Below are positions 19,536-40,021 of a stretch of DNA of 48,552 nt, in pieces. Within the stretch, counting starts at the first letter, position 1. Each line of letters begins with the position of its first letter. The translations under genes were made by a program, and so were the position numbers. The notes beneath the pieces were generated by a model. It had not been told where the DNA came from. It saw nothing but the letters and a program-made list of their open reading frames with translations, and searched no databases. Origin of the DNA: a virus; UHGV virus genome UHGV-0142349; one strand, 5' to 3'.

Positions 19536-19544
19536 GGTGACAAA

Positions 19545-19975: not shown

Positions 19976-19980
19976 TACTA

Positions 19981-22773
19981 ATGGCCAGCAATAAGAACTT
20001 TAAGCTGGCTTTTGAAATTGGCGGCAAAGTTGCCGCCTCTCTCCCCAAAAGTTTTACTACAGCTAATCAGGCTGTTGCTAAATTAAATGCCGAGCTTGCT
20101 GGATTAACGAAAGAACATGGGGAAATTCAAAAGCTACAATCTGTAAAAGTAAAGGTTGGACAGACTGCCCTCGAATATCATAAAGCTGCCGCTCGCGTTG
20201 AAGAGTTACAGAAGCAAATAAAAAACACGGCCAATCCAACCAGAGCGATGCTTCGTGACTTTGAGAAGGCAAAAACACATTCATCGAATTTACGAGCATC
20301 ACTACGTTCTCAGCGTGAAGAACTGGCCGCTTTAAAGTCTGCCTATCAGGGAGCTGATACATCTGCCAGAGCTTTGGCCTCAAGAGAGAAAGAGCTTAAA
20401 GCCAGCATTGATCGTAATCGTGAGGCTCAGGTCCGTAGCGTTGAGCAGGTTAACCGCTACAGAACGGCTTTGGCTTTAGCCAGAGCAAATGTTCAGCAAG
20501 TGAAAAAACAGCAGGAGGAACTTAACCGGGCATTAGAAAAACAACGTATTGATAAAATTAACAGCTATAAAAATGCGTTGGCTGAAGCACGGAAAAATGT
20601 TCTTGCAGTAAAACGTGCTCAGGAGGAGTTAAACCGCGCGTTGGAAAGGCAGCGTGAATTGAAGCGAGAGCATCTTGGTGAGGCAAAGAGTCAACTTGTA
20701 AGGTCAGGATTACAAACTGGTGCTGTAGCGGCTGGTGCATTTGCTGCTGCTAACAATGCAGCAAATTTCAATCGTGAAAACAAAATGATTGGTCTTACGG
20801 CAGATATGAAGCCGGAAGAAGTTCAGGCGATGGGGCAGGCGATGCTTGTTACCGGAACGGCCACCAACCAGTTTGCATCTGATATTCAGGCCGCTCAGGG
20901 TTTTCTCGTCGCTGCTGGGCAGGATTATAAAGAGGCTCAGGCGAATCTACTAACTATTGGGCGAACAGCTACAGCTACTGGCTCTGATATCCTCGATGTC
21001 TCGAAAGCATCATTTACATTAAGTGACTCATTGAAGATTGATCCATCTCAAATGAAGTCTGCAATGGGGATTCTGGTTCAGGCAGGGAAAGAGGGAAACT
21101 TTGAATTTAAAGATATGGCCAAAAATCTTCCTGTGCTTGGTGCTCAGTTCCAGGCATTAAAAATGGGAGGTAAAGAAGCCGCCGCGACGATGGGGGCAGC
21201 TTTGCAGATAGCTCGCAAAGGTGCTGCAACTTCGGATGAGGCTGCTAATAATATGAACAACTTTTTGGCGAAAATACTTTCCCCTGAAACCCTAAAAAAA
21301 GCAAAGAAAAATTTCGGTGTAGATTTATATAAAATTGTCACAACAGCGCAGAAAAAAGGGAAGAATCCATTCGAAGCTGCAATGCATTCTGTCATGAAAA
21401 TGACTAAGAACGGAGATCAGAAGTTACTTGGTGAGCTATTTGGCGATATGCAGGTTCAGAACTTTGTTCGTCCGATGATTCAAAACTGGAAGGAATACCA
21501 GAGAATCAAAGCAACATCTCTTGGTGCTGGAAGTGCTGTTATTGACCGCGATTTTGCCAACATAACGAAAGACAATGCGGAGCGATTGAAACAATTACGT
21601 ATTCAGGCTAGCAATGCATCATTAAGTTTTGGTCAGGCCTTGCAACCTGCTTTGAATGCCGCGCTTAGTGTTTTGGTTCCGCTGATTACAAAAATTAGTG
21701 AATTTGTAGCTAACAACCCCAATTTTGTGTCTCAGATTGTGATGGCGGCAGGTGCGTTTCTAACCATGAAAAGTGTGGTTATAGCGTGTAGGGTAGCTAT
21801 GCTGGCTTTATCTGTAGCGACAAAGCTAACACCCTTCGGGTGGATTCAGATGGCTATATCTGCGCTGGTTGCCGCAGGAATATTGCTCTATCAGAACTGG
21901 GATAAGATCAGAGATTATGCTGTCAGAGTTTGGCCTTCTGTTAAGGAATATACAGTTAAATCGTTTGAAGCTATAAAAAACTTTATCTTAAACTTTGATC
22001 TCAATGGATGGATTATATCTATGTTTGGTAAAGCATGGGATTATCTTTCCAACATAAACTGGAGTTCGGCAGGAGTAAGAATTTACAGTACATTAATTAG
22101 TGCTTTTAAATGGATGTCTCCGCTTCCGTTCTTAATTAAAGCATTTAAACTTACAACAAATTACCTTTCTGGTATTAACTGGAGCGAAACAGGAAAGAAA
22201 ATCATAGATACACTGGTATCTGTTTTTATGCGTTTTTCACCAGTTGGACTCTTTATAAGAGCATTCCAATCTGTAACGGCTTATTTGTCTGGAATAAACT
22301 GGAGTGAGTCAGGCGCAAAAATAATTGAGACGTTAATCACTGGGATAAAATCAAAAGCAAATGCTTTAATTAATGAAGTGAAAGGCGTTTTTTCTTCTGT
22401 ACGTGAGTATTTACCGTTCTCTGACGCGAAAAAAGGTCCATTCTCACAGCTAACAAAGTCAGGTGGTGCAATAATGACTACTCTGGCATCAGGTGTTAGC
22501 AGGAATAACAGCTTACAGAATGCAATAGCAACCAAGTTCGGGCAATCAAATTTATCACCTCACGGGATATCTGCCGCCGGGACTTCTGGACCTCGCCAGA
22601 ACGTTAATGCTGTGACTGGTGGAATAACCTATTCACCTGTAATCAATCTTCCGGCTGGTTCACCAAAGGAAACTGAGGCGGCAGCTAAAAGAGCATTAGA
22701 TGCGGGATATTCTGATTTTGAGAAGAAATTGAGTGCTCATATGTTCCAACAACGGAGATTAAGTTTTGGATGA
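19981..22773 (+). CDS. tail tape measure protein
   Basis: 930 aa, coiled-coil N-terminal part, hydrophobic mid segments. Confidence 0.85.
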   Translation: MASNKNFKLAFEIGGKVAASLPKSFTTANQAVAKLNAELAGLTKEHGEIQKLQSVKVKVGQTALEYHKAAARVEELQKQIKNTANPTRAMLRDFEKAKTHSSNLRASLRSQREELAALKSAYQGADTSARALASREKELKASIDRNREAQVRSVEQVNRYRTALALARANVQQVKKQQEELNRALEKQRIDKINSYKNALAEARKNVLAVKRAQEELNRALERQRELKREHLGEAKSQLVRSGLQTGAVAAGAFAAANNAANFNRENKMIGLTADMKPEEVQAMGQAMLVTGTATNQFASDIQAAQGFLVAAGQDYKEAQANLLTIGRTATATGSDILDVSKASFTLSDSLKIDPSQMKSAMGILVQAGKEGNFEFKDMAKNLPVLGAQFQALKMGGKEAAATMGAALQIARKGAATSDEAANNMNNFLAKILSPETLKKAKKNFGVDLYKIVTTAQKKGKNPFEAAMHSVMKMTKNGDQKLLGELFGDMQVQNFVRPMIQNWKEYQRIKATSLGAGSAVIDRDFANITKDNAERLKQLRIQASNASLSFGQALQPALNAALSVLVPLITKISEFVANNPNFVSQIVMAAGAFLTMKSVVIACRVAMLALSVATKLTPFGWIQMAISALVAAGILLYQNWDKIRDYAVRVWPSVKEYTVKSFEAIKNFILNFDLNGWIISMFGKAWDYLSNINWSSAGVRIYSTLISAFKWMSPLPFLIKAFKLTTNYLSGINWSETGKKIIDTLVSVFMRFSPVGLFIRAFQSVTAYLSGINWSESGAKIIETLITGIKSKANALINEVKGVFSSVREYLPFSDAKKGPFSQLTKSGGAIMTTLASGVSRNNSLQNAIATKFGQSNLSPHGISAAGTSGPRQNVNAVTGGITYSPVINLPAGSPKETEAAAKRALDAGYSDFEKKLSAHMFQQRRLSFG

Positions 22774-22984
22774 TTATAGAACGGTTCAAGGGGACTCATG
22801 GGATAGTATCGCGTTAAAGTTGTATGGTAATGAGTACCTGTCTTATCTTCTTATTGATGCTAATACTGAGCACCGCTTTACGGTGCTTTTTTCTGCGGGA
22901 ATTATTCTTAAAGTTCCTGATGCTCCGGTTATGCCAATATCAGTAAACAATTTGCCTCCGTGGAGACGCAATAGTGTTACGTAA
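22766..22984 (+). CDS. tail protein X-like (small LysM-like tail protein)
   Basis: 72 aa between tape measure and gpD-like gene as in P2/R-pyocin clusters. Confidence 0.45.
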   Translation: MDDYRTVQGDSWDSIALKLYGNEYLSYLLIDANTEHRFTVLFSAGIILKVPDAPVMPISVNNLPPWRRNSVT

Positions 22985-23975
22985 AACGCTTTTTGATGTT
23001 ATATATCAGAATGTAAATATTACCGCTCATATGTCACCTGATGTTTTGTCAATGTCTTATACAGATAATGAAGATGGTCAGGTCGATGATATTTCTATTA
23101 TATTAAAAAATGATGATGGGAAATGGTCTGGAGACTGGACACCTAAAAAGGGTGATTTTATTGATTTGAGCTTTAAGCCTATAAATCAAATCGTCCTTGA
23201 GTGCGGGAAATTCCAGGTAGATGGCATAACTTGCTCTGGACCACCTTCTGTTGTTGAGGTGACTGCTGTTTCTGTTCCTGTTTCATCAGGCATTAGACGT
23301 GATTTAAAAAGTAATGCATGGGAAAAAACAACTCTTAAAGATATAGCAACCTCTATAGCTAAATTAGCTAACCTTGAACTGTTGTTTCTTATTGATGGTG
23401 ATAGTAATCCATATTATGCGCGTGAAGATCAAATGGAGGAAAGCGATTTAAAATTTCTCCATCGACTATGCCAGGATGAAGGGTTGTCGTTAAAGGTCAC
23501 TGATAGCCAATTAATAATATTTGCTCAAGAGATGTTTGAGCAAAAAGATCCTATCGCTACGCTTACGTTAGGTATTGATGAGATAATCAGATATAGCTTT
23601 AGCACACAATCTACAGATTTGTATAAAAGTTGCACGTGCAAATATCGCGTACCTAAAAAAAGAAAGTCGCTTTCGTATACTTGGGTAGATCCATCCGTAG
23701 AAGAAGGGTCGAATCTTAAGATAAGAAAACTGGTAGCTAATTTAGATGAAGCAAAACGTAAGGCAAAGGCTGCTTTGCGGCTTAAAAATAGATATCAAAA
23801 TACAGGATCTTTAGTATTGGTTGGAGACACCAGATTGGTAGCTGGTGTAACTATAAATCTGGACGGATTCGGTTCATTTTCTGGAAAATATCTTATATCG
23901 AAAGCTGTGCATTCAATTGGGGCTAGTGGTTATACCACCTCGATTGATGTCCGAAGAGTAATTAATGGGTATTAA
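22974..23975 (+). CDS. tail protein D-like (late control D family)
   Basis: 333 aa after tape measure. Confidence 0.55.
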   Translation: MLRKTLFDVIYQNVNITAHMSPDVLSMSYTDNEDGQVDDISIILKNDDGKWSGDWTPKKGDFIDLSFKPINQIVLECGKFQVDGITCSGPPSVVEVTAVSVPVSSGIRRDLKSNAWEKTTLKDIATSIAKLANLELLFLIDGDSNPYYAREDQMEESDLKFLHRLCQDEGLSLKVTDSQLIIFAQEMFEQKDPIATLTLGIDEIIRYSFSTQSTDLYKSCTCKYRVPKKRKSLSYTWVDPSVEEGSNLKIRKLVANLDEAKRKAKAALRLKNRYQNTGSLVLVGDTRLVAGVTINLDGFGSFSGKYLISKAVHSIGASGYTTSIDVRRVINGY

Positions 23976-23977
23976 TT

Positions 23978-24598
23978 ATGAATGATTTAGAAACATTATT
24001 ACGTCAGACTATAAGAGTTGGCGTTGTTTCTGATATTGATGATGGTGATGTTACAGCAAGAGTTACTTTCGATGATCAGGATAACGTCACTTCGGCAAAG
24101 TTATCAGTTATTGTGAAAAATACGGATAAGAATGCTGATTACTGGATGCCAGATATTGGTGAGCAAGTTTTGTGTATCTTTCATCCCGCAGGGCCGCAAC
24201 AAGGTTTTATTCTTGGTAGTTTTTATGATGAAACACAGAAGCCGCCATCTAATACTGTTAATAAACGCGTCATTAGATTTAATAACGGAACTCGTATTGA
24301 GGTAGACAGAGAATCTAATTTACTCCTTGTTGATGCTGTCGGAGATGTAACCGTTAAGGCTACAGGAACCGTAACTATTGATGCTCCAGAAACCATCATT
24401 ACCGGAAATGCTACAGTTGAAGGATTACTAACCTTCAAAGGTGGAATGAAAGGATCTTCTGCTGGAGGTGTTGCAGCTACAATTTCTGGGGATGTTAAGG
24501 TTGTTGGTGGTGATATAGATGTTGATGGGATTAAATCTAAAGGCCACCATCACACGGCTCAGGGGGAATACGCTCCGACAACGGAGGCTCAGGCATGA
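23978..24598 (+). CDS. baseplate spike/assembly protein V-like
   Basis: 206 aa; position ahead of W/J/I homologs. Confidence 0.6.
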   Translation: MNDLETLLRQTIRVGVVSDIDDGDVTARVTFDDQDNVTSAKLSVIVKNTDKNADYWMPDIGEQVLCIFHPAGPQQGFILGSFYDETQKPPSNTVNKRVIRFNNGTRIEVDRESNLLLVDAVGDVTVKATGTVTIDAPETIITGNATVEGLLTFKGGMKGSSAGGVAATISGDVKVVGGDIDVDGIKSKGHHHTAQGEYAPTTEAQA

Positions 24599-25062
24599 TT
24601 GTGGGTATGCTTGGTACAATGCCTTTTGTTGCCTCATCAATAGTGGTGAATACGTTCAACAATTTTAAAAGGACGTCAAAGCGTCGTGTAGCGCGCCATG
24701 ATGTTATTGGGCTTAAACCTGTTCTGGAGGATATAGGTCCAGATCTGGATGAAGTTAGTTTTAATATGCGGTTGGATACAACACTTGGCATTGTTCCATT
24801 GGCTGCGCTTTCATTACTTAGGACAATGCAATCAATTCAGGAAGTAAATCCTGTTGTAATTGGTATTCAGTATTTTGGTAATTTTATAATTACAGATATA
24901 GAGGAATCATGGACTTATTTCGGTCCAACTGGGAATCCACGAGTGATTATCGTCGGCATTAAATTACAGGAAGTCGGACAGACCTCTCTGAAAGAAGCAT
25001 TAGTTGATATTGCTGGCAATATAGAGTCAAAAACTAGAAGTGCGTTAGGTAAATTATTATGA
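24595..25062 (+). CDS. tail protein (gpU-like, tentative)
   Basis: 155 aa; weak resemblance to P2 gpU pattern. Confidence 0.35.
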   Translation: MIVGMLGTMPFVASSIVVNTFNNFKRTSKRRVARHDVIGLKPVLEDIGPDLDEVSFNMRLDTTLGIVPLAALSLLRTMQSIQEVNPVVIGIQYFGNFIITDIEESWTYFGPTGNPRVIIVGIKLQEVGQTSLKEALVDIAGNIESKTRSALGKLL

Positions 25063-25379
25063 ATAATACGTTTACCATATCATCACCTTCTTACTCGATT
25101 GATTGGTCGCCCAAAACAGTTGTAGAAGAAGTATTGCAAAATGTCTCTACTATTATTAATACTCAGATTGGCACTGTACCATATGCCAGAAAATTAGGAG
25201 TTAATTCAAGTCTTGTTGATAGCCCTAGCCCAATTTTTATTGCTACAGCAACACGAGAAATAATTCAAAAAATTAGTGAGTTTGAGCCTAGAGCGATTAT
25301 CCATTCTGTTACTTTTGAAAGAACGGACGTTTCTGATGGTTTTATTAGGCCAAAACTTGTGATAGGAGTTAGAGAATGA
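25059..25379 (+). CDS. baseplate wedge protein (gpW/gp25-like)
   Basis: 106 aa, position before J-like. Confidence 0.6.
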   Translation: MNNTFTISSPSYSIDWSPKTVVEEVLQNVSTIINTQIGTVPYARKLGVNSSLVDSPSPIFIATATREIIQKISEFEPRAIIHSVTFERTDVSDGFIRPKLVIGVRE

Positions 25380-26500
25380 CGTTGCCGCGCGGTGGTTTGC
25401 CAGATATTACTTTCGCAGATTCTAACCCGACTGATATAACAACTCGTTCAATCAGGGCTTTTGAGAGTATAACAGGTGAAACATTAGCACCTGCTGATCC
25501 ACGTAGATTATTCATCTTGTCATTGTGTGAGATTATTATACAGCAAAGAAAAGCTATCGATTTTTCTGCAAAACAAAACCTTCTTACATATGGTGGGGGT
25601 GAATATCTCGACCATATAGGCTATCTGACGGATACGCCTAGGCTGGAAGCTCAATCTGCCTTGACTACATTTGAGTTTAATCTGTCAACAAAATTATCGG
25701 GGATATATACAATACCTGCTGGCACTCAAATTTCAACTGGAAATAGTGTTATTTTCCAAACAGATGTTTTGTTGGAAATACCAGCTGGGAAAACAGTTGG
25801 TATAGTCTCAGGATATGCTGTTATACCTGGCTTATCGGGGAATGGATTTTTACCTGGGCAAATAAACGAGTTGGTGACTCCGTTGCCGTATGTTTCCAGC
25901 GTAAGGAATCTAACAACATCTAATTCTGGTGCTGATACAGAGTCAGATGATAATTATGCTGAAAGAATAAAACTGTCGCCGGAAAAACTGTCTACAGCAG
26001 GGCCGGAGGATTCTTATAAATATTGGACAAGAACAGCCAATCAGAATATAAAAGATGTGAATGTATATACACCATCGCCCGGAACTGTAGAAATCCGTTC
26101 TTTGTTAGAGAACGGGGATATACCTTCTGATGAACTATTAGAGCAGATAAATAGCGTTCTCTCTGCAACTAATATTCGACCATTCACAGATAAAGTTCTT
26201 GTTAAGAAACCAGAGAGCATTGAATACGATATAATAATTAAATACTGGATTAACTCATCGGACAAAAACAGAACAACGTTAATTCAAAGTGAGGTTGAGA
26301 AAGCTCTTGATGAGTATAAACAATGGCAACGTTCGGTTATGGGAAGAGATATAAATCCAGATGAAATTATTCAACGTTTAAAAAATGCCGGGGCTAAAAG
26401 ATTAGAAATATCAAGTCCTGTATTTACTGTAGTTGGAGAGACGCAGGTCGCCAGAGAGAGAAATATAAATTGCCAGTATGCGGGGTTAGAGGATGGCTGA
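25376..26500 (+). CDS. baseplate J-like protein
   Basis: 374 aa between W-like and I-like. Confidence 0.65.
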   Translation: MTLPRGGLPDITFADSNPTDITTRSIRAFESITGETLAPADPRRLFILSLCEIIIQQRKAIDFSAKQNLLTYGGGEYLDHIGYLTDTPRLEAQSALTTFEFNLSTKLSGIYTIPAGTQISTGNSVIFQTDVLLEIPAGKTVGIVSGYAVIPGLSGNGFLPGQINELVTPLPYVSSVRNLTTSNSGADTESDDNYAERIKLSPEKLSTAGPEDSYKYWTRTANQNIKDVNVYTPSPGTVEIRSLLENGDIPSDELLEQINSVLSATNIRPFTDKVLVKKPESIEYDIIIKYWINSSDKNRTTLIQSEVEKALDEYKQWQRSVMGRDINPDEIIQRLKNAGAKRLEISSPVFTVVGETQVARERNINCQYAGLEDG

Positions 26501-27074
26501 TATCTTTAATGTTAGCTTGTTGGATGTTTTACCTCCTAACTTAGCTAGAGATCCCAACGTGATAGCTATGTCGAAAGCTATTGATGATGAACTACAAGCA
26601 ATTAACAATTTAATATATAAGACAGAAATATATAGCGTTGTTGATAACCTGGACTCAGTTGTTCTCGATCATTTAGCTTGGCAATGGAATGCTGATACAT
26701 GGAGGGATAGTTGGCCTGTATCGTTAAAGCGTTCTGTTTTTAAATCAATAATACGAACAAAGCGAATAAAGGGTACAAGGGCAGCGGTTGAAGATGTAGT
26801 AAATAGCTTGGGTGGAGAGGTAAACATAACAGAATGGTTTGAAACATCACCACCTGGCGAACCATATACAGCCTCAATTGTTGCTTCGATTAACTCTTTT
26901 GATGGTGCCGTTCCTTCGAAAGAGATGTTGGAAGATACGTTAAGAAGTATCAAGAGCGCAAAGTCGGCAAGAACATTATTTACATTTTCGCAAGCAGCCA
27001 ATGTTTCTGGTGGTGTCGGTATTGTTGGTGCTTGTCAGCCTGTGTCTTATGTACGATTAATTGGCGAGTGCTAA
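26493..27074 (+). CDS. tail protein I-like (baseplate)
   Basis: 193 aa directly upstream of tail fiber gene. Confidence 0.55.
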   Translation: MADIFNVSLLDVLPPNLARDPNVIAMSKAIDDELQAINNLIYKTEIYSVVDNLDSVVLDHLAWQWNADTWRDSWPVSLKRSVFKSIIRTKRIKGTRAAVEDVVNSLGGEVNITEWFETSPPGEPYTASIVASINSFDGAVPSKEMLEDTLRSIKSAKSARTLFTFSQAANVSGGVGIVGACQPVSYVRLIGEC

Positions 27075-27104
27075 TTCGCAATTTGTTAATTCAAGGAATT
27101 AAGC

Positions 27105-29483
27105 GTGAGTAAATTATTATTTACGATGACTGACGCCGGGCGTCAGGAGCTGGTTAATGCCAACAAAACAGGAACAAATAAAGTTGAGATTGTTTCTGTT
27201 GGTTTAGGTAGTAGATATTATGTCACGTCAACTTCACAAACAAATATAACAAACGAAATAAAACGACTTACCACAATAGGTGGCAAAGTTGTTTCCCCTG
27301 ATACAATTCATGTAACAGCGAAGGATGATAGTAAAGATGAGTATGTTGTCCATACAATAGGATTGTATACGAATAAGGGTACGTTGTTTGCTGTATACTC
27401 ACAAGAACAAGCAATAATAAATAAAGCATCATCTACTATCGCTTTAATATCAAGTGATATAGCAATTAAAACTCTTGATACTAAAAATATTACATTTGGT
27501 GATATTGAGTTTATTAATCCTCCCGCGACCGAAACTGTTGTTGGGGTGGCAAGATTTGCTAATGAACAAGAAATTGATGCAGGTACAGATGATTCCCTTG
27601 CTGTTTCAGCAAAACGGCTTAAGCAAGCCATTGTGAAACATGAGCAATCACGTAATCATCCTGATGCAACTTTAACCTCAAAAGGTTTTGTTCAACTTAG
27701 CAGCGCCACCAATAGCACGTCTGAAACGCTTGCTGCGACGCCTAAGGCTGTTAAGGCAGCATATGACCTGGCTAATGGCAAATACACCGCACAGGACGCT
27801 ACCACAGCGCGAAAAGGGATTGTTCAGCTCAGTAGTGCCACCAACAGCACGTCTGAAACGCTAGCAGCAACACCAAAGGCTGTTAAGGCAGCGTATGATC
27901 TTGCGGCCGGAAAGGCTCCGTCCAATCACACGCATTCGTGGGAGCAGATAACAAATGTGCCTGTAGCTTCACTGACTGTAAGGGGAATAACTCAGCTCAG
28001 TAGTGCCACCAACAGCACGTCTGAAACACTGGCCGCGACATCGAAAGCTGTAAAGGTGGTAATGGATGAAACGAACAAGAAAGCGCCCCTGAACAGTCCG
28101 GCGCTGACCGGAACACCAACAACACCAACTGCGCCAAAAGGTACTAACAATACTCAGATCGCAAGCACGGCTTATGTTATGGCTGCGATCGCTGCCCTCG
28201 TGGACTCGTCGCCTGACGCGCTGAATACGCTGAACGAGCTGGCTGCGGCGTTGGGCAACGACCCGAATTTTGCGACCACCATGACTAACGCGCTTGCGGG
28301 TAAGCAACCGAAAGATGCCACCCTGACGGCGCTGGCCGGGCTTGCTACTACGGCAGACAGGTTTCCGTATTTTACGGGGAATGATGTCGCCAGCCTGGCA
28401 ACTCTGACAAAAGTCGGGCGGGATATTCTTGCGAAATCGACCGTTGCCGCCGTTATCGAATACCTCGGTTTACAGGAAACGGTAAACAAGGCTGGTAACG
28501 CCGTGCAAAAGACAGGCGATACCTTGTCCGGTGGACTTACTTTTGAAAACGACTCAATCCTTGCCTGGATTCGGAATACTGACTGGGCAAAGATTGGATT
28601 TAAAAATGATGCCGACAGCGACACTGATTCATACATGTGGTTTGAAACAGGCGACAACGGCAATGAATATTTCAAATGGAGAAGCAAACAAAGCACCACA
28701 ACAAAAGACCTGATGAATCTTAAATGGGATGCTTTGTATGTTCTTGTCAATGCCATTGTAAATGGCGAAGTCATATCAAAATCAGCAAACGGCCTACGTA
28801 TTGCTTATGGTAATTACGGATTCTTTATTCGTAATGATGGTTCAAATACATACTTCATGTTGACAAACTCCGGTGACAACATGGGGACTTATAACGGATT
28901 AAGGCCATTATGGATTAATAACGCTACTGGCGCTGTTTCGATGGGGCGTGGCCTTAATGTTTCAGGGGAGACACTTTCAGACCGTTTTGCTATTAACAGC
29001 AGTAATGGTATGTGGATTCAGATGCGCGATAACAACGCTATCTTTGGGAAAAATATAGTTAACACTGATAGCGCTCAGGCGTTGCTTCGCCAGAATCACG
29101 CCGACCGAAAGTTCATGATAGGTGGACTGGGGAACAAGCAATTTGGCATCTACATGATTAATAACTCAAGGACAGCCAATGGCACCGATGGTCAGGCGTA
29201 CATGGATAATAACGGGAACTGGCTTTGCGGCTCGCAAGTTATTCCCGGAAACTATGGCAATTTTGACTCCAGATATGTGAAAGATGTTCGACTTGGTTCA
29301 CAGCAATATTATGGAGTGAACAACTGGCAAACATGGAATTTCCAGTGCCCGTCAGGTCATGTATTGTCTGGTATTAATGTTCAGGATACAGGGTCCAACT
29401 CTGCCGATAATATAGCGGGCGTTTATTACAGACCCGTTCAAAAGTATATAAATGGCACCTGGTATAATGTAGCGAGCGTTTAA
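27105..29483 (+). CDS. tail fiber protein (constant N-terminal part plus invertible C-terminal part)
   Basis: 792 aa; three tandem copies of [19 protein letters not shown] motif; crossover repeat at 28462..28490 inside the gene. Confidence 0.8.
27688..28065 (+). repeat. three ~80-bp direct repeats inside tail fiber gene
   Basis: Repeated nucleotide blocks at about 27688-27772, 27820-27900, 27985-28065. Confidence 0.7.
28462..28490. repeat. left inverted repeat (crossover site) of invertible segment
   Basis: ACCTCGGTTTACAGGAAACGGTAAACAAG; reverse complement matches 31505..31533 with 2 mismatches. Confidence 0.75.
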
Positions 29484-29484
29484 T

Positions 29485-30012
29485 ATGATGCACTTAAAGA
29501 ACATAAAAGCGGGTAACGCTAAAACACTGGAACAGTATGAGTTAACAAAGAAACACGGAGTTATCTGGCTTTACTCTGAGGACGGAAAAAACTGGTATGA
29601 GGAAGTGAAAAACTTTCAGTCAGACACAATAAAGATTGTTTACGATGCAAATAATATTATTGTCGCCATCACTAAAGATGCCTCCACGCTTAACCCTGAA
29701 GGTTTTAGCGTCGTTGAGGTTCCAGATATTACAGCCAACCGCCGCGCTGATGATTCAGGAAAGTGGATGTTTAAGGATGGAGCTGTAGTTAAACGGATTT
29801 ATACGGCAGACGAACAGCAACAACAAGCCGAATCACAAAAGGCCGCATTGCTTTCCGAAGCTGAATCAGTCATCCAGCCGCTGGAACGCGCTGTCAGGCT
29901 GAATATGGCAACAGACGAGGAACGCACACGACTGGAAACATGGGAACGCTACAGTGTTCTGGTCAGCCGTGTGGATACGGCAAATCCTGAATGGCCACAA
30001 AAGCCTGAGTAA
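29485..30012 (+). CDS. tail fiber assembly protein (current orientation)
   Basis: 175 aa; paralog of 30041..30574 on opposite strand. Confidence 0.7.
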
Positions 30013-30018
30013 AAATTA

Positions 30019-30036
30019 AGGCCCGATATCGGGCCT
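30019..30036. terminator. bidirectional hairpin between convergent tail fiber assembly genes
   Basis: aggcccgatatcgggcct perfect palindrome. Confidence 0.45.
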
Positions 30037-30040
30037 TCTC

Positions 30041-30574
30041 TCATTCTGGTTGTTCGGGAAACGTTACTGGCAGGCTGGAGGTGTCTGTGGATTCGACTTT
30101 CTGCGCGTAGAGCATCCACTCGGTTAATTTTTGTTTATTCTCGTCGGAAATGATGCCCAGCCGTAGCTGTGAGTCCCATAGCTGGGTTTTATCCCTGACA
30201 AGTTGCAACAGGCTTTGCTTTTCATTCTCTGCCTGCTGCCTCTGTTCCTCCTCGGTATAAGTTCGCTTTATCACTACGCCATCTTTGAACATCCATTTAC
30301 CCGAAATATCAGCCCGGCGATTTGCTGTAATATCAGGTAATTCAACGACGCTTGCGCCTTCTGGATTAATTGCTGAAACATCCTTTTCAATACAAATAAT
30401 AACGCCGTTGTGGTCATAGACCATTTTCAACGTATCAGGCTGAAAGTTCTTTTGTTCCTCATACCAGTTTTCCCCATCCTCTGTATAAAGCCATTTGATG
30501 TTAAATTGTTTCGTTAGCTGGTATTGCTCTTTTGTTTTAGGGTTGCCAGCAGTAATATTTTTTAAGTGCATCAT
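30041..30574 (-). CDS. tail fiber assembly protein (alternative)
   Basis: 177 aa, same N-terminal MMHLKNI.AGN motif as 29485..30012 product. Confidence 0.7.
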   Translation of the reverse strand: MMHLKNITAGNPKTKEQYQLTKQFNIKWLYTEDGENWYEEQKNFQPDTLKMVYDHNGVIICIEKDVSAINPEGASVVELPDITANRRADISGKWMFKDGVVIKRTYTEEEQRQQAENEKQSLLQLVRDKTQLWDSQLRLGIISDENKQKLTEWMLYAQKVESTDTSSLPVTFPEQPE

Positions 30575-30576
30575 AA

Positions 30577-31524
30577 TTAAATACTCCCCGCGTTATACCA
30601 CGTTCCATTAATGCAATACTGAATTGGCCTTGCCTGAGTTGTATCAATTAATTCATCACGGTTTCCGTTAACTGACCCCGTAACGACATAACCTGACCTG
30701 TCAGACCAGCCGGGACCATTCCATGTCTGAACAGATGACAGACCGCCAAGACGAATACCTGTAATAAACCTTGAGTTACATTCTGCCTGCGTATATGCAC
30801 CAACATCTCCCGCTGATGGCTTACGTGTTGTGGTGTAAATTTCTGACCAGTCAGCTTCGAATCCGTAACCATCACGCGCTGAACGATAAAAAATACCGCC
30901 GTTCCTGTAATTCACACGGAACTGTACGGCAGGGCAACTCCCCGTATTCATATTGAAGTGGAGGATTAATGTCGATGCGCCACCAATATTTGCGTTATAG
31001 ACCCCGCTATTCCAGTTCCAGCCAACAGCTTTATCATTTCCGACAGTGCTTCCTGTTTGCCCTAAAGCAAATGCAGGCTGCTGGTTTTTCGTGTTGTAGT
31101 CTCGTCGCCAGCCAGGAGCATAAGCATCACCATGATTAATATAAGTGAATTGAGCGTTAGTGATTCCGCCACCGCTGGAAGTGCTCGGGGTGGTTACACG
31201 GATGGTCATGGCTCCTTTATTACCCATAACCTCAATAACGCAACCTGCAAGATGAATAGTTCCACAGCCAGTATCGGTAATAATTTTATTATTGCCGTAT
31301 GACCATGAACATTTGCACATCCAGTATGGGTGATTGAATGCCCCTTGAGAATCAAGCCATTCAATCAATTGTGCCGTTGTCCAGTTCCCTGCCCCTGTAC
31401 TAATAGCACTGTGAAAAGCACGACATGCACCAATATTTTTTGTGAAGGTATCTTTTCCAGGAATATCTGCGCCGTTCTGGTTTTTCTGTAATGCGCCAGA
31501 AGCCTTGTTTATCGTTTCCTGCAA
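30577..31524 (-). CDS. alternative tail fiber C-terminal segment
   Basis: N-terminus (M)QETINKASG parallels LQETVNKAG at crossover in the expressed fiber; likely continues into the right repeat with no own start. Confidence 0.65.
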   Translation of the reverse strand: MQETINKASGALQKNQNGADIPGKDTFTKNIGACRAFHSAISTGAGNWTTAQLIEWLDSQGAFNHPYWMCKCSWSYGNNKIITDTGCGTIHLAGCVIEVMGNKGAMTIRVTTPSTSSGGGITNAQFTYINHGDAYAPGWRRDYNTKNQQPAFALGQTGSTVGNDKAVGWNWNSGVYNANIGGASTLILHFNMNTGSCPAVQFRVNYRNGGIFYRSARDGYGFEADWSEIYTTTRKPSAGDVGAYTQAECNSRFITGIRLGGLSSVQTWNGPGWSDRSGYVVTGSVNGNRDELIDTTQARPIQYCINGTWYNAGSI

Positions 31525-31533
31525 ACCGAGGTT
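31505..31533. repeat. right inverted repeat (crossover site) of invertible segment
   Basis: CTTGTTTATCGTTTCCTGCAAACCGAGGT. Confidence 0.75.
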
Positions 31534-31605
31534 TTTGCGAATTGCCTCTGTGTCGTCTGAACGATATTTTTTCCCGCTTTTAGCAACAATCGCGGTTTAG
31601 AAAGT

Positions 31606-32160
31606 ATGCAATATGGTTATGCGAGGGTGTCAACTTTTGACCAGAATTTGGAATTACAACTGGAGGCGCTCAGGAGTTCAGGATGTGACCGGATTTTTGA
31701 AGATAAAATATCCGGTGCTAAATCAAAACGACCAGGGCTTGATAAGCTACTGAAGGTGTTACGGCCGGGCGATACGGTTATTGTCTGGAAGCTGGATCGA
31801 ATGGGGCGTTCTCTGATTCATCTTGTTGATTTACTTAACCATTTTTTATCAAACAACATTGAGTTTATTTCGATTACGGAAGGGATAAAAATTAGCACTT
31901 CAATTGGCCGCTTTGCCTACACGATGCTGAGTGCAGTCGCAGAGATGGAGCGGGAAAATATGATTGAAAGAACGCGTGCAGGATTGGCGGTGGCAAGGGC
32001 TAATGGCAGGATAGGAGGACGCCGCTCAAAATTGGCCCCAGAGCAATGGGAACAGATCGGAAGGCTTATTGCGAATGGTGTTTCACGTAAGCGGATAGCG
32101 ATTATCTTCGATGTTACCTTATCCACGCTTTACCGCAGGTTTCCGGCTGGGAATCATTGA
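31606..32160 (+). CDS. serine recombinase, DNA invertase (Gin/Hin/Pin/Cin family)
   Basis: N-terminal YARVSTFDQNLELQ with catalytic Ser; small size with C-terminal HTH; adjacent to invertible segment. Confidence 0.85.
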   Translation: MQYGYARVSTFDQNLELQLEALRSSGCDRIFEDKISGAKSKRPGLDKLLKVLRPGDTVIVWKLDRMGRSLIHLVDLLNHFLSNNIEFISITEGIKISTSIGRFAYTMLSAVAEMERENMIERTRAGLAVARANGRIGGRRSKLAPEQWEQIGRLIANGVSRKRIAIIFDVTLSTLYRRFPAGNH

Positions 32161-32341
32161 CTGGAGTTAGGCCAGTAGTATGATGCTCGCAAAACGAGAT
32201 CCAATTTAGATCCTTTTACTGGTGGATTATCGTTCGATCAGTGAGAGACTTCGTGCATGACCGAAAGTGTTGTGGTAGAGTTCTCTTAAAACCACGTAAC
32301 GTGGTTATGATTGTGGGTGTCTGGTTGGAAAGCGACCAGAT

Positions 32342-33319
32342 ATGGAAACAAAAAGCCCGCAGATAAATCTGCGGGCTTCTTGCGACATCCACGGAAAACC
32401 AACAATTAACCATGGGCGCCTCGACAACTCCCATTATACGTTGGTTTTCCGTGGACGCAAGAGCGAACATATGGATAGACCAATGCCGTCTCTACGTTCA
32501 GCTTACGTTTGTAATTTGTCGCCGGAGTTCCAGCCTCCAAAGCACCATACGCACAAGCTGCCGCTGGTGTTATCTGATGCTTTACAGCGCATTAATGGTC
32601 GTGATCTTACGTGTGAGGTTGCGTTCTACGTTAATCAACCGTCAGAGCGGAAACGCCGGATAAACGAGCATCGTCGTCGGGCGATTAATGCTGTGATTGC
32701 TGCGATTTTGCACCATGTAAACATCATTTCTAAGCGGGTTCTGGCCAGTGCTGAGGCGTTGGCTGATTTTTGCGGTCTGTCTACCGTATCCGAAGCTGGG
32801 AACAAGTCTATAACGCGCTGTACAAGGGCGTTGTCGCAACTGAAAGCGTTAGGTTTTATTGATTATGAACGTCGCTGGGATCGGGTGAATAAACAGTATT
32901 GGCCAGCGAAAATAGAGATTCGTGATCAACTGCTGGAAACCGTTGGTATTACTGAACAAGCATGGAGACGTGCGGTTAGCCAGAAACTTAATTACTTCAA
33001 TGCGAAGAATAGCGAACGGCTTAAAAAAGCGATAACGGAGGCTGATTATAAGCGTATTGTTATTCAGGAGCAGATGGAGAATGTATGGCGTCAGAGGAAG
33101 ACGGCCAGAGAGATAAAGGCAAAACAGAAAGCAGCGGAGAGAGCTGCGCGTCTTGTTCGGGAAAAGGGAGAGGCCGAACTTCGTCATCAAATCACTAGAG
33201 AGGTTAGCCAGGAATTTGCTGATGGCATGTATCCTGGAGCTGACCTTGCATATTTACGATCCCTCGTTGAGCAGCGTTATAACAGGTTAAGAAAGACTTG
33301 GAAATCACTCCAACATTAA
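32342..33319 (+). CDS. repA: plasmid replication initiator RepA (IncFII RepA1-like)
   Basis: Segment SITRCTRALSQLKALGFIDYE resembles IncFII RepA1; basic C-terminus; real start may be internal ATG 32471 downstream of leader stem-loops. Confidence 0.65.
   Translation: METKSPQINLRASCDIHGKPTINHGRLDNSHYTLVFRGRKSEHMDRPMPSLRSAYVCNLSPEFQPPKHHTHKLPLVLSDALQRINGRDLTCEVAFYVNQPSERKRRINEHRRRAINAVIAAILHHVNIISKRVLASAEALADFCGLSTVSEAGNKSITRCTRALSQLKALGFIDYERRWDRVNKQYWPAKIEIRDQLLETVGITEQAWRRAVSQKLNYFNAKNSERLKKAITEADYKRIVIQEQMENVWRQRKTAREIKAKQKAAERAARLVREKGEAELRHQITREVSQEFADGMYPGADLAYLRSLVEQRYNRLRKTWKSLQH
32346..32455 (-). ncRNA. putative CopA-like antisense RNA in repA leader
   Basis: On minus strand: 15-bp-stem hairpin (32389..32454) then hairpin 32355..32376 followed by TTTTTGTTT. 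Confidence 0.35.
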
Positions 33320-33439
33320 CCCACCTGAATGATGAATCCGGTTTTACCGGAGGATTATCTACGTCGCAATAAAATATCTGTTCAAAAAACAATCTAAATT
33401 AATTTTCTCTAAACCTGAACACAGCAAAAATATCGCCTT

Positions 33440-33600
33440 TACAGGCATCGGCTAATAAAGTTATCCACAGTTTTGATATGTATATGCAAATGGTTTTTTA
33501 TAATAGATGCACTAAACAAATAAATGCAAAATCACTTTCTTTTATTAAGACTTTCTTTATTTAACTTACGCAGGCTTTGCCTGTGAATATGTTCGCCCTT
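33440..33600. promoter_or_regulatory. putative replication origin (DnaA box TTATCCACA at 33461..33469 plus AT-rich tract)
   Basis: Perfect DnaA box about 140 bp downstream of repA stop, then about 120 bp AT-rich DNA. Confidence 0.5.
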
Positions 33601-33950
33601 GCAGCGAGCTAAAGCTCGCGCCGGTTCGAGTCGCTACGCTCAAATATACCTCCTCCGGCACTTGCCGGAGGCATGGAGCAGCCTGATCATCCTTTTCGAA
33701 ACGGCGCGTTTCGAACTATACAAAATCAATTTATATAAGGCCGAAATAAGGCCTACGGCCGGGCTTTGCAGGAGGAAGGGGCGAGCCTTATCAATAAACG
33801 TCGATAAATACGCACACAGTAGCCATCAGAACGCGATAAAACGTAAGAAACATCATGTCCTATTAGACATAGAAAACTTGTCTTATACGCAATGTAGTAA
33901 ATTTCTATTGCCACATAGGAAAAGATTTCCTACCATCGTAGATATAATAA

Positions 33951-34250
33951 ATGGAGATGGTTATGGATAAAGATACTGTTTTAAAAATGTTGAATCCGGC
34001 TTGTTTAAAAAAAGCGGATGAATGGGAATCTCCTACATGTGGAGAAGTTCGGGCAGTCATTGGCCTGACCGGAATGAGCGGCTCGCAGTTGGCCAAAAAA
34101 CTAGGCTTAAAAGATAGTCGCAATGTTCGCAACTGGCAGATGTTAAAGGAGTCCACATCCAGATCCAGCATTCCGTATGCAGCCTGGGCGCTGCTGTGTT
34201 ACTTCGCTGGGTTAGGGTTAATCTTCATTGATAACAAAACAGATGTTTGA
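33951..34250 (+). CDS. hypothetical HTH-containing protein
   Basis: 99 aa; GLTGMSGSQLAKKLGL resembles an HTH. Confidence 0.35.
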   Translation: MEMVMDKDTVLKMLNPACLKKADEWESPTCGEVRAVIGLTGMSGSQLAKKLGLKDSRNVRNWQMLKESTSRSSIPYAAWALLCYFAGLGLIFIDNKTDV

Positions 34251-34537
34251 AACATGCAAATATGAGGTTTGTTATGGAACTTGTACGCAAAACACGCAAA
34301 GAGTTCTTGGACCTGTATCGCATGGGAGCTTTCACTTGTGTTGTGGCTACCCAGGACGAAGTGACAAAAAGCTGGCGGCTTTTTGCTCTCAATAAAAAAG
34401 GGATTGCCGTTTTCATTGAAAAAGCCCGTGGTGGTATCCGCGAATGGGCGGGATTGAATTATGTGGCTGATTTTTGCGCAGCTATGGGGATTCGTCGCTG
34501 GGAAGTCCATATGCCAGGAGTAAAGTCACAAAAATAG
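34247..34537 (+). CDS. hypothetical protein
   Basis: 96 aa ORF overlapping stop of previous gene. Confidence 0.35.
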   Translation: MKHANMRFVMELVRKTRKEFLDLYRMGAFTCVVATQDEVTKSWRLFALNKKGIAVFIEKARGGIREWAGLNYVADFCAAMGIRRWEVHMPGVKSQK

Positions 34538-34781
34538 GGCTTTCGCGTCGAAAATGAGGCGAAACTGAAAACGAGATTTCATTAACAAATAAGCAACATA
34601 AAAAACGGTGGAAAACGCCCAGGAAAACATGATCTTTTGAGCGGATTTTTTAGATCCGACAATGAACGGTGATCCGGTGGTGCCGATAACGTCCATTATG
34701 TTAAATAGCCCCGTTTTTCTTGAAATTATAACTCACAGGTTATATAGTTAGTGATATAAACTACAGGTTATAGGATTGAGC

Positions 34782-35129
34782 ATGTGGACGGTACTTTTTA
34801 GCCAGCGATTTGACGACTGGCTAAATGAGCAAGAAGACGCTCTTCAGGAAAAGGTTTTGGCTGATTTGAAAAAGCTACAGGTTTACGGACCTGAGTTACC
34901 TAGGCCATATGCCGATACCGTAAAAGGTTCTCGGTACAAAAATATGAAAGAGCTTCGCGTTCAGTTTTCTGGCCGTCCGATAAGAGCCTTTTATGCGTTC
35001 GATCCGATTCGCCGGGCCATCGTTCTTTGTGCAGGAGACAAAAGTAACGATAAGCGGTTTTATGAAAAACTGGTGCGTATAGCTGAGGATGAGTTTGCAG
35101 CACATCTGAACACACTGGAGAGCAAGTAA
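34782..35129 (+). CDS. type II toxin, RelE/ParE superfamily (HigB/Gp49-like)
   Basis: Gp49-like pattern (ELR..., RAFYAFDPIRRAIVLCAGDK..RFY); precedes and overlaps an XRE-HTH gene; start at ATG 34782 (track uses TTG 34776). Confidence 0.65.
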   Translation: MWTVLFSQRFDDWLNEQEDALQEKVLADLKKLQVYGPELPRPYADTVKGSRYKNMKELRVQFSGRPIRAFYAFDPIRRAIVLCAGDKSNDKRFYEKLVRIAEDEFAAHLNTLESK

Positions 35130-35428
35130 TGAGAACATTAGATGAGGCGATTGCCAGCCGTTCACCGGAAAGCCAGGCGCGAATTAAAGAAATGGCAGAT
35201 GAGATGATTCTTGAGGTCGGCTTGCAGATGATGCGTGAAGAACTCCAGTTATCACAAAAACAGGTTGCTGAGGCGATGGGTATAAGCCAGCCAGCAGTAA
35301 CAAAGCTGGAGCAGCGCGGAAATGATTTAAAGCTGGCGACATTAAAGCGTTACGTTGAAGCTATGGGAGGCAAATTAAGCCTGGATGTTGAGCTTCCCAC
35401 AGGAAAACGAATAGCGTTTAACATCTGA
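35129..35428 (+). CDS. XRE-family HTH antitoxin (HigA-like)
   Basis: HTH LSQKQVAEAMGISQPAVTKLE; start overlaps toxin stop (TAATG). Confidence 0.65.
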   Translation: MRTLDEAIASRSPESQARIKEMADEMILEVGLQMMREELQLSQKQVAEAMGISQPAVTKLEQRGNDLKLATLKRYVEAMGGKLSLDVELPTGKRIAFNI

Positions 35429-35443
35429 TCAGAACGAATGATA

Positions 35444-35470
35444 AGCCCCTGTTGCAAAGGGGCTTTTTTG
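35444..35470 (+). terminator. rho-independent terminator
   Basis: agcccct-gttgcaa-aggggct then TTTTTT. Confidence 0.6.
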
Positions 35471-35478
35471 TGCTCACA

Positions 35479-35591
35479 GAATTATATAATTATAGATTTA
35501 TATAAAAAGTGCTTTACATGTGGGAAAAAATTTCCTAAGGTTATACCCGAAACCGAGCGATACCCGCCCTGGTTAAACCGGAGATAACCCG
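35479..35591 (+). promoter_or_regulatory. promoter-leader cassette copy B
   Basis: Near-identical to copies at 3407 and 45065; -35 TTTACA, -10 TAAGGT, conserved leader with GGAGA SD. Confidence 0.6.
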
Positions 35592-35972
35592 ATGAGCATG
35601 ATTAAAATCCGCAAAAACGCTTTCCTTAAAATTCAAACTATCCTGGCTGGTTCTGTTGGCGTGATTTGCCGTTCTTCCTCAAGCCGCATCGATGACTGCT
35701 ACGATGATGAGTATCGTGTGTCCTCATGCGATGAGGCTTTAACCTGGCTGAAGGAGAATCAGGAACGTGCCCAGGTATATCTGGAAACAGAGAACGGCAA
35801 TCAGATGCTGCGTATTAGCGGTCGTTATGGATTTGAAACTACATTCATGGCCTATTTTAATCAGGCTTACTTTGACAAGGAGTTGGCCTGGTACACTGAT
35901 CGCATGAGCAAAAGCGAGCCAGCCCCGATTACACCGCCGAACAATAAACCATTTTTATTCCTCGTTAAGTAA
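35592..35972 (+). CDS. hypothetical protein (cassette-driven)
   Basis: 126 aa ORF. Confidence 0.5.
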   Translation: MSMIKIRKNAFLKIQTILAGSVGVICRSSSSRIDDCYDDEYRVSSCDEALTWLKENQERAQVYLETENGNQMLRISGRYGFETTFMAYFNQAYFDKELAWYTDRMSKSEPAPITPPNNKPFLFLVK

Positions 35973-35979
35973 ACACAAT

Positions 35980-36008
35980 GCGCAAAGTGTCATTTTGACA
36001 CTTTGCGC
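35980..36008. repeat. perfect palindrome (13-bp arms, 3-bp spacer) GCGCAAAGTGTCA-TTT-TGACACTTTGCGC
   Basis: Seen directly; AAAGTGTCATTTTGA half also at 45010..45024. Confidence 0.6.
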
Positions 36009-36075
36009 GTGTTAATATAGGGGGCGTTTGAAGATAGATAACTTATTGTGGGGCAAGCCGATAACTTACATTGGG

Positions 36076-36501
36076 TTAGCTTGAATAGGTAGTTGGTATT
36101 TTGAGCATATGGCCAATCTCTTCGAGATGCTTAGATGGATTCTCCCCAGTCTTACCTTCATGTATTGACGCTATATAGTTCAAATTTTGAGCTGCCCCAA
36201 GAATCTCGGTGTCTGATGGAACAAGACGAAAGCCGATATGTAACTTTTTGATATAGAAAGGTAAAGTGGAATATTTCGCCATTAACTGTGCTGCGGAATC
36301 TTTTAGATCATGAATGATTTCTGGCTTTAAGTTCGAGCCAGGATTCACTATTTTTGCTTGGTTACACAATAACAGATTGGATATTTTCCCTAGTTGTTCC
36401 CTGAATGAAATGTAAGGCTCAATAGCTCCTTTGACGATGAGTTGGCCTAGAACAAAAACACTTACACCAGTGACCACGGTGACAAAAGCAGATGAACTCA
36501 T
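36076..36501 (-). CDS. hypothetical membrane-anchored protein
   Basis: 141 aa, N-terminal TMD; region looks AT-richer than flanks; divergent from HTH gene. Confidence 0.45.
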   Translation of the reverse strand: MSSSAFVTVVTGVSVFVLGQLIVKGAIEPYISFREQLGKISNLLLCNQAKIVNPGSNLKPEIIHDLKDSAAQLMAKYSTLPFYIKKLHIGFRLVPSDTEILGAAQNLNYIASIHEGKTGENPSKHLEEIGHMLKIPTTYSS

Positions 36502-36602
36502 TTTTTACCTAAAGCCTAAAGATTGGATTGTTAATACATCTTATTTTGTCGTGAGTGGCTATGTCTAATTTATTGAATATCTAGGGAAAGGTAGAGGATG
36601 TA

Positions 36603-36875
36603 ATGACGGGTTACGAATTGAAATTATGGCGTCGTGGGATGAACTGGACGCAGGAGCGAGCCGCCGAAGAGTTTGGGATATCGTTGGCTACATATAAGCG
36701 ATATGAGAAGGGGGTGCCGCCGAGGGTCATGGAGATGGCCATTCGCGTTCTGTCGTTTGACGATATGGTTAAGGATCTTTCACACCTTGATAAAGATGCG
36801 ATTCTGTTAAGGCTGCAAACCCTTGTATGGGAAAAGGTTAAAGTGTCGGCAGAATTGGAACAAGGGATCAAATGA
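36603..36875 (+). CDS. HTH (XRE-like) DNA-binding protein
   Basis: 90 aa; WTQERAAEEFGISLATYKRYEKG resembles an HTH. Confidence 0.45.
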   Translation: MTGYELKLWRRGMNWTQERAAEEFGISLATYKRYEKGVPPRVMEMAIRVLSFDDMVKDLSHLDKDAILLRLQTLVWEKVKVSAELEQGIK

Positions 36876-36923
36876 TCCTTTACGGATCGTTTTATGGTGG
36901 TGTAATGTAAGCGCCAGAAAGAC

Positions 36924-36948
36924 AAAAACCGCCTTGCCGGGCGGTTTT
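36924..36948. terminator. bidirectional rho-independent terminator
   Basis: aaaaccgcc-ttgccg-ggcggtttt (A-run before, T-run after). Confidence 0.55.
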
Positions 36949-37484
36949 CAGTCTGAAATTTAAATCTTGCTTGGTAGGCTGGATTTAAAAAGACACCTCT
37001 TGATTGGGGCGGCTTTCTTGCGTCTAAAGATAATCAAATCTTTTTGCGCCTGCAACCCCTTTTTTACTGGTGCTCATTTCAGACTCACGCTCGCGTCGTT
37101 GTCTTTGCCACTTCGTTGGGTTCGGTGTTTTTGGGCGAAGTGGCGCGCGGGTATGCGTACAAGGGGAAAGTGTGCTGACGCAAGCTAGGAACAGCGATCT
37201 AAACTAAGTCGAGTCTGAGAAAGGCAGGAGTGCGACAACTCGCCTGTGCTCTATGAGCAGAAGAAGGTATATCAGACGACCAATGGCATGATTGTGGGCC
37301 ACAGGGCGCACACGGCGGCGAAGCATTGGAAACGATGTGGAGCTATCTGGTGGCATGAGTTCCGGTACTCGATCTCGAGCTTTTTTGATGCTTTTGAGAA
37401 GGGGCCGGAACTCCGGTAAAGGGCACCCTGTATGGGGGGAGGGGGGGTTGTGTCTGAAGGGTGGTTATCGGTTATGGTGGAATT

Positions 37485-40016: not shown

Positions 40017-40021
40017 CGATT

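Follow-up and report, generated by a model that had tools for sequence, protein, structure and literature searches.

The 48,552-nt virus genome UHGV-0142349, which was analyzed over its full length and is called the window below, carries an invertible tail fiber segment of about 3 kb. We read this segment, with a probability of roughly 0.92, as an active host-range switch of the Mu G/P1 C type residing on a ca. 48.5-kb Escherichia coli phage-plasmid that encodes a contractile tail and an IncFII-type RepA. Two inverted 26-bp recombination sites flank the segment, the fiber reading frame stays open across the junction in either orientation, both isomers of the same element are present in public sequence data, and the crossover lies within about 10 bp of the site core. 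A gene for a small serine recombinase directly to the right of the segment probably supplies the catalyst.

A repeat search delineated inverted arms of 52 nt (28459–28510 and 31484–31535) that are 79% complementary and enclose a 29-nt core, in which 28462–28490 pairs with 31504–31532 with two mismatches. The initial annotation had given this 29-bp repeat the same left arm and the same number of mismatches; its right arm, 31505–31533, turned out to be one base off, a register that yields 17 mismatches. Repeats of such quality are expected by chance 2e-7 times in the 5.5-kb region and 1.5e-5 times in the whole window. An alignment of the arms revealed that their conserved block is half of a gix/hix/cix-type imperfect palindrome of 26 bp, and the complete 26-bp sites reach 9 bp outside the 29-nt repeat. 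The left gix-like site (28453–28478, TTATCGAATACC-TC-GGTTTACAGGAA, core 28465–28466) is located inside the reading frame of the fiber gene S. Its inner half is that of Mu gix, and the whole site agrees at 26 of 26 positions with the site of the ATCC 25922 plasmid discussed below, which recombines. The right gix-like site (31516–31541, TTCCTGCAAACC-GA-GGTTTTTGCGAA, core 31528–31529; reverse complement TTCGCAAAAACC-TC-GGTTTGCAGGAA) is in inverted orientation to the left one, with an identical 2-bp TC/GA core. Both inner half-sites are identical, or identical at 11 of 12 positions, to Mu gix. Mu itself reads TTATCCAAAACC-TC-GGTTTACAGGAA at both ends of its segment, whereas the outer half-sites here are TTATCGAATACC and TTCGCAAAAACC; by this comparison the outer half-sites are specific to the lineage of the window, while the inner half-sites and the core are Mu-like. 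A degenerate profile of two half-sites, run across the whole window, yielded no third gix-like site. Only these two sites rose above chance level, and the system is therefore a simple two-site switch; a Min-like multiple-inversion system was ruled out, as the additional matches in the window were at chance level only.

The DNA between the two cores (28467–31527) comprises 3,061 bp. Inverting it at the cores in silico keeps the reading frame: the constant part of S, termed Sc and 454 codons long, is fused to the alternative variable part Sv' to give a fiber of 770 amino acids (aa), and the chaperone gene U' then begins 3 nt past the stop codon of this fiber. Both fusions, the 792-aa fiber of the forward (+) orientation shown and the 770-aa fiber of the opposite (-) orientation, are thus in frame.

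Both states were recovered from public data, as the initial annotation had predicted for the orientation not seen in the window. The locus L021 (ENA ERZ27297388, k119_46852) is 100% identical to window positions 19105–37483. A second locus, L019 (ENA ERZ28575624, scaffold_777), stems from a 99.97%-identical element whose flanks differ at 2 of 9,389 nt and 2 of 5,917 nt, and in which 28462–31535 is inverted, with a difference at 1 of its 3,074 nt. The junctions of L019, TTATCGAATACC-TC-GGTTTGCAGGAA and TTCGCAAAAACC-TC-GGTTTACAGGAA, are exactly those predicted in silico. Comparison of these two loci shows that the same element occurs in both states. When the exact 770-aa and 792-aa fibers were looked up in a collection of 15 billion proteins, the predicted Sc-Sv' protein was present without a single change (P0123, "tail fiber protein [Escherichia coli]", EKO0803238.1, HAX2752506.1) and was encoded on seven contigs of 48–49 kb; the 792-aa form, also public, was found on 4 contigs. 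A single orientation combined with an inactive invertase, the outcome named beforehand as speaking against a switch, is not what the data contain, given the two orientations and a catalytic Ser9 that is in place.

A closely related 48,488-bp plasmid of the E. coli reference strain ATCC 25922 provides a second case. It is collinear with the window over the whole length and 97–99% identical over most of it, the largest gap in similarity falling within the variable fiber part (28493–29238). Both 26-bp sites recur in it unchanged (26/26), and its invertase matches that of the window at 183 of 184 residues. Independent assemblies of this plasmid have been deposited in the window orientation (CP158444, CP081011, CP037450) and in the opposite one (CP009073, CP117232, CP066145, CP149501, CP101926), and by blastn the isomers differ by a clean 3,071-nt inversion between flanks that are 99.9% identical. 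One further record, CP032086 (NZ_CP032086.1; loci L008 and L010), is a "linear" ATCC 25922 plasmid of 94,204 bp containing two 48-kb copies with opposite fiber segments; it is a true dimer or else was assembled from a mixed population. Two equal-sized plasmids from E. fergusonii, CP057568 and CP057564, have the same orientation.

The isomer pairs also locate the exchange. In loci L017–L020, as in the ATCC 25922 plasmid, an A/G difference at inner half-site position +6 (28472) accompanies the segment on inversion, and the outer half-sites keep their positions; the crossover therefore occurred between 28461 and 28472, that is, within about 10 bp of the core. Exchange this close to the core is what a staggered cut predicts, whereas homologous recombination along a repeat of 50–75 nt would be predicted to resolve mostly elsewhere.

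The gene content of the segment conforms to the description in the initial annotation, with the C-terminal fiber part and an assembly gene in forward orientation and an alternative pair on the opposite strand; all four inner genes are intact. The complete fiber gene S (27105–29483, + strand, 792 codons) has Pfam matches to Phage_fiber_2 repeats and Gp34_trimer. Its constant part Sc extends up to the crossover core (27105–28466, + strand, 454 codons; Pfam Phage_fiber_2 and Phage_tail_fib) and includes three direct repeats of 93 nt at 27680–28072, the second and third being 84% and 67% identical to the first copy, which encode three Phage_fiber_2 repeats. The copy number of this repeat varies among relatives, and the fiber of the ATCC 25922 plasmid is longer. 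The variable part Sv (28467–29483, + strand, 338 codons; Pfam Gp34_trimer) is expressed in the orientation shown and resembles S of Mu and P1. It is about 98% identical to Mu up to the tip and near-identical to both Mu S and P1 S until about fiber residue 730, after which the last ca. 60 residues differ from both. The tip is being exchanged independently of the remaining segment. Distal Sv is also the most divergent stretch (28493–29238 and 29280–29483) relative to the otherwise 97–99%-identical ATCC 25922 plasmid. On the opposite strand, the alternative part Sv' (30577–31527, - strand) contains a gp37_C domain and is 91% identical to Mu S', its last ca. 260 residues being identical. Its frame (30577–31524, - strand, 315 codons) lacks a start codon of its own and is open through the right repeat to the right core. 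The peptide parallel between the two fiber parts at the crossover, pointed out in the initial annotation, is real, and the alternative side reads GLQETINKASG.

Each variable part is followed by its own chaperone gene. U, paired with Sv, occupies 29485–30012 (+ strand, 175 codons; Caudo_TAP, E = 5e-37) and is 91% identical to Mu U; U', paired with Sv' and silent in the orientation shown, occupies 30041–30574 (- strand, 177 codons; Caudo_TAP) and is 98% identical to Mu U'. The two converge on a central hairpin: the 28-bp spacer between their stop codons contains a GC-rich perfect palindrome, AAGGCCCGATATCGGGCCTT (30018–30037), which is terminator-like and has a T-run on the - strand. U and U' are 56% identical, which accounts for the internal inverted repeats I1–I3 of the segment. 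Repeats of this origin are involved in a separate rearrangement in the relatives vB_YpM_41 (L001 5286–6490) and vB_YpM_44 (L011 2786–3989), between which only the middle of the segment is inverted, i.e., the 3' parts of U and U' with the spacer, comprising about 394 nt of unique sequence. At its boundaries are inverted repeats of ca. 400 nt, 97% identical, that the 5' portions of U and U' supply. The rearrangement swaps the chaperone C-termini between the two fibers and looks like the product of homologous recombination. The counterparts of these repeats in the window are only 71–75% identical.

A serine invertase just to the right of the segment had likewise been reported in the initial annotation, and we find its gene at 31606–32160 (+ strand). 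The 184-aa product is a small serine recombinase with the nucleophile Ser9 and Pfam matches to Resolvase (E = 3e-44) and HTH_7. Its best match in the PDB is Mu Gin (3uj3) with 211 bits, compared with 110 bits for gamma-delta resolvase, a result that groups the enzyme with the invertases rather than the resolvases. Sequence identities amount to 55% with Gin, 57% with D6 Cin, and 54–60% with Cin and the P88 and Kp4849-2 invertases. In an alignment with Gin and Cin, Ser9, Arg7, Arg42, Asp64, Arg65, and Arg68 are invariant. The protein is 100% identical to that of phage vB_YpM_39 and was seen in exactly this form on 995 contigs. Among the NCBIfam models, no invertase-specific one scored above its cut-off for this protein. 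The earlier designation "Gin-family" holds in a broad sense; more narrowly, the enzyme belongs to a divergent sub-clade that lacks some of the residues conserved in Hin, Gin, and Cin.

In the mechanism that we propose, the late operon would transcribe S, the first 454 codons of which (Sc) lie outside the invertible segment and the last part inside. Dimers of the 184-aa invertase would bind both inverted 26-bp sites and cut them at the shared 2-bp cores (28465–66 and 31528–29), and half of the resulting tetramer would turn by 180 degrees before religation, thereby inverting the 3,061 bp between the cores. Sc-Sv, the 792-aa fiber, would be co-expressed with U in the orientation shown, and Sc-Sv', the 770-aa fiber, with U' after inversion. 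Activation would follow the example of Gin, Cin, and Hin, with Fis of the host occupying an enhancer within the 5' region of the invertase gene; we infer this step by analogy. The two fibers would recognize different cell-surface receptors, such that a population of lysogens releases phage of two host ranges, as the precedents of Mu and P1 suggest.

The putative recombinational enhancer spans 31624–31695, i.e., nt 19–90 of the invertase gene, and is homologous to the Cin enhancer that the P1 record annotates at nt 19–90 of cin. An alignment with P1 shows that this stretch keeps two conserved blocks, GT(G/A)TCAAC...TGAC and CAGGATGTGA. A motif scan for G..C 15-mers placed candidate Fis cores at centers 31634 and 31683, with a spacing of 49 nt both here and in Mu; no pair of such 15-mers exactly 48 nt apart was found in this crude Fis-consensus scan. 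The first candidate core lies about 105 bp from the right recombination core, compared with about 96 bp for Mu in the same scan and about 100 bp between site and enhancer for Hin (PMC3798978). These features are compatible with an enhancer at the 5' end of the gene. Of further relevance are Gln151, Arg154, and Leu155 of Hin, the Fis-contact residues in helix 1 of the DNA-binding domain, which are conserved in invertases and not in resolvases (PMC3798978). By alignment, all three are kept here as Q150, R153, and L154.

Several points weigh against the reading of the segment as a switch operating in this manner. The enhancer assignment rests on coding-region homology, and because the same bases encode the conserved motifs RVSTxDQN and GCxxIFEDK, the conservation of the two blocks is not independent evidence. 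A simple scan detected no promoter-like site upstream of the invertase gene. As to the consequences for host range, the tip of Sv is unlike those of both Mu and P1. The most specific points concern the invertase itself. Hin has a basic patch in helix B formed by Lys47, Lys/Arg48, and Lys/Arg51; of these, Lys47 is, according to a comparison of 15 invertases, "always a lysine" (PMC3798978). The protein encoded in the window has Asp46 at that place; its helix B reads Asp46-Lys47-...-Lys50, so that two of the three positions are basic. In helix E, the regulatory Hin residues Phe105, Phe106, and Met109, referred to as a "phenylalanine switch" (PMC4513852), form part of the series Phe105-Phe106-His107-Val108-Met109, for which the window has Ala104-Tyr105-Thr106-Met107-Leu108. 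Corresponding single substitutions in Hin are severe: F105A gave no inversion and poor growth, F106Y a trace of inversion, and M109L very little (PMC4513852, Tables 1 and 2).

To place these residues in a wider context, the relatives of the invertase were collected in a search of 5.8 billion protein clusters, and the 120 nearest cluster representatives were compared. About 89 of the 120 share the signature of Asp with Ala-Tyr-Thr-Met-Leu, which therefore marks a natural sub-clade and not a lesion. The representatives that share it are at least 69% identical to the invertase of the window and come from E. coli, Salmonella, Citrobacter, and Shigella; enzymes with the canonical K...FFH(V/I)M residues appear only at 63% identity or below. 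We regard the "always lysine" rule as a conserved signature rather than a family definition, and therefore file the enzyme as a member of a divergent sub-clade. The invertase evidently inverts in vivo, though in Hin each such substitution alone is inactivating or toxic. Phage D6 Cin was considered as a possibly characterized member of the sub-clade and rejected, as it has the canonical residues, and our literature search found no experimental study of the sub-clade. The 193-aa invertases P0007–P0018 are 88% identical to the enzyme of the window and are encoded on E. coli and Salmonella contigs of ca. 85–100 kb; they join an Ala-Tyr-Thr-type catalytic domain to a C-terminal DNA-binding region and tail that resemble those of Gin. 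In P0019, a canonical Lys-Lys...Arg helix B is paired with an Ala-Tyr-Thr helix E. The invertase genes of the P0007–P0019 group appear to be mosaics.

The non-canonical residues raise the alternative that the switch is the same and its invertase is regulated unlike Gin, Hin, and Cin: in this widespread sub-clade, the gating of the dimer-to-tetramer step may differ and may depend less, or not at all, on the Fis-bound enhancer, or inversion may proceed at a different rate. The replaced positions are ones that govern Fis-dependence and tetramer formation in Hin (PMC4513852, PMC3798978), and the replacements are fixed throughout most of the closest relatives. On the other hand, the three Fis-contact residues and two of the three basic helix-B residues remain, blocks homologous to the enhancer cores of P1 and Mu occur at the same place with the same spacing, and the distance from site to enhancer falls within the range of Hin and Mu. 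Taking both sides together, we consider such a departure in regulation rather unlikely, at odds of about the order of a die roll.

Two other explanations deny activity, or deny it to the invertase, and we hold both to be highly improbable. According to one, the segment is a frozen relic: it came from a Mu/P1-like ancestor and has ceased to invert in this element, so that the orientation is fixed and only Sv and U are used. The window itself is in one orientation only, and its invertase bears residues at positions where single substitutions inactivate Hin; a relic is, however, contradicted by the inverted 99.97%-identical element and its predicted junctions and by the exact Sc-Sv' fusion on seven contigs. 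Also against it are the two deposited orientations of the ATCC 25922 plasmid, whose sites are identical and whose invertase matches at 183 of 184 residues, and the integrity of all four inner genes. According to the other, the isomers arise by RecA-dependent homologous recombination between the repeats, or reflect choices made by assemblers in mixed reads, without the invertase. The arms do have 29–52 nt in common here, and those of the ATCC 25922 plasmid about 73 nt; the second inversion between vB_YpM_41 and vB_YpM_44 at the ca. 400-nt U/U' repeats is of a homologous-recombination-like kind. For RecA, however, arms of this length are very short, and sequencing reads exceed them. The A/G marker located 6 nt inward of the core is carried along by the segment in every isomer pair, which confines the exchange to ca. 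10 bp around the core and keeps it out of the longer identical stretch farther inward. Identical junctions were moreover found repeatedly, in metagenomes as well as in isolates independent of one another. An active site-specific switch driven by the neighboring invertase thus remains our preferred reading.

As for known systems, the resemblance to the Mu G segment noted in the initial annotation extends over its entire length: 28446–31535 is collinear with Mu G and 90.5% identical over 3,101 nt. Mu, D108, P1, P7, and D6 all match the segment, with 92–95% identity to the homologous parts of P1, P7, D6, and D108. The window and Mu share the order Sc, gix, Sv-U, U'-Sv', gix, invertase, the start of the invertase gene adjoining the right site, as well as the TC core, the inner half-sites, and near-identical Sv' and U' products. 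They differ in the outer half-sites, in the invertase, which is 55% identical to Gin with non-canonical helices B and E, in the last ca. 60 residues of the Sv tip, and in Sc, which has about 170 residues in Mu and here has 454, is P2/P88-like, and contains three fiber repeats. Mu is, moreover, a transposing phage, whereas the element in the window is a plasmid prophage. The latter lifestyle is shared with the C segment/Cin (cix) systems of P1, P7, and D6, in which the cores of Sv, U, U', and Sv' are 92–95% homologous (94–95% identity over about 3.0 kb for P1) and, in P1, the enhancer is annotated in the 5' part of the invertase gene, the position of the putative one here. Unlike the arrangement in the window, P1 cin points towards the segment, the P1 repeats are much longer, and its C segment measures 4.2 kb with larger Sv parts; both P1 and D6 Cin have the canonical K...FFHVM residues. 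Salmonella Hin/H and E. coli e14 Pin/P belong to the same recombinase class and have 26-bp sites with a 2-bp core and the Fis-contact residues (PMC3798978). Hin, however, flips a promoter and not a coding segment, and its switch residues F105, F106, M109, and K47 are replaced here. Finally, p15B Min and the plasmid shufflons also diversify a fiber or pilus tip by site-specific inversion, yet with more than two crossover sites instead of two.

The remainder of the window represents a complete phage-plasmid with lysis genes, terminase, portal, a ClpP-type protease, capsid, sheath, tube, tape measure, and a P2-like baseplate. Past the baseplate genes follow the fiber module, an IncFII-type RepA (32342–33319), a RelE/HigB-type toxin-antitoxin pair, and ParA and ParB-like genes. 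The close relatives vB_YpM_39, vB_YpM_41, and vB_YpM_44 were isolated as plaque-forming myoviruses on Yersinia pestis, which indicates that the family makes infectious particles. A literature search retrieved no paper on the 48-kb family or on these three phages, and "pSLy3-like" was rejected as a name for the family because it belongs to the SSU5 supergroup.

Other features of the window lie outside the fiber module. A dispersed 23-bp AT-rich motif, TTATATAAATCTATAATTATATA, occurs in 10 copies (at most 3 mismatches, both strands; none expected by chance) at 2255, 3410, 35483, 40528–40558, 41244, 41317, 45073, and 46282, and accounts for most of the other inverted repeats in the window. Such a set resembles the operators or promoters on which a phage regulator acts, and a parallel exists in the C1 operators dispersed over the P1 genome. 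Above the gathering score, Rfam matched a C4 antisense RNA (39190–39278, - strand), isrK (39303–39376, - strand), and ryfA (39748–40044, + strand); the C4 family is known from P1/P7-type immunity. A tRNA-Met (CAU) is encoded at 2425–2500. The 5' end of the IncFII-type repA frame contains a strong hairpin with 16-nt arms (32349–32364 and 32367–32382) and a second one with perfect 16-nt arms (32388–32403 and 32440–32455), both upstream of the start of the Pfam RepA match, which may be a copy-control antisense-RNA or leader region. At 99% identity, positions 1–108 match the part of phage P7 annotated as upf89.5, and this match stands apart from any other P7 similarity in that query.

The switch as such is of a well-known textbook type and conceptually nothing new; the only aspect that departs from the textbook is the non-canonical invertase sub-clade. 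For the biology of the element, its activity implies that a common E. coli phage-plasmid would release virions with two alternative receptor-binding tips, which bears on host-range prediction, on phage typing, and on how assembly differences between genomes of one strain are read. With its non-canonical regulatory residues and a ready-made in vivo readout, the invertase sub-clade could be set beside Hin and Gin as a point of comparison for the model of their activation.

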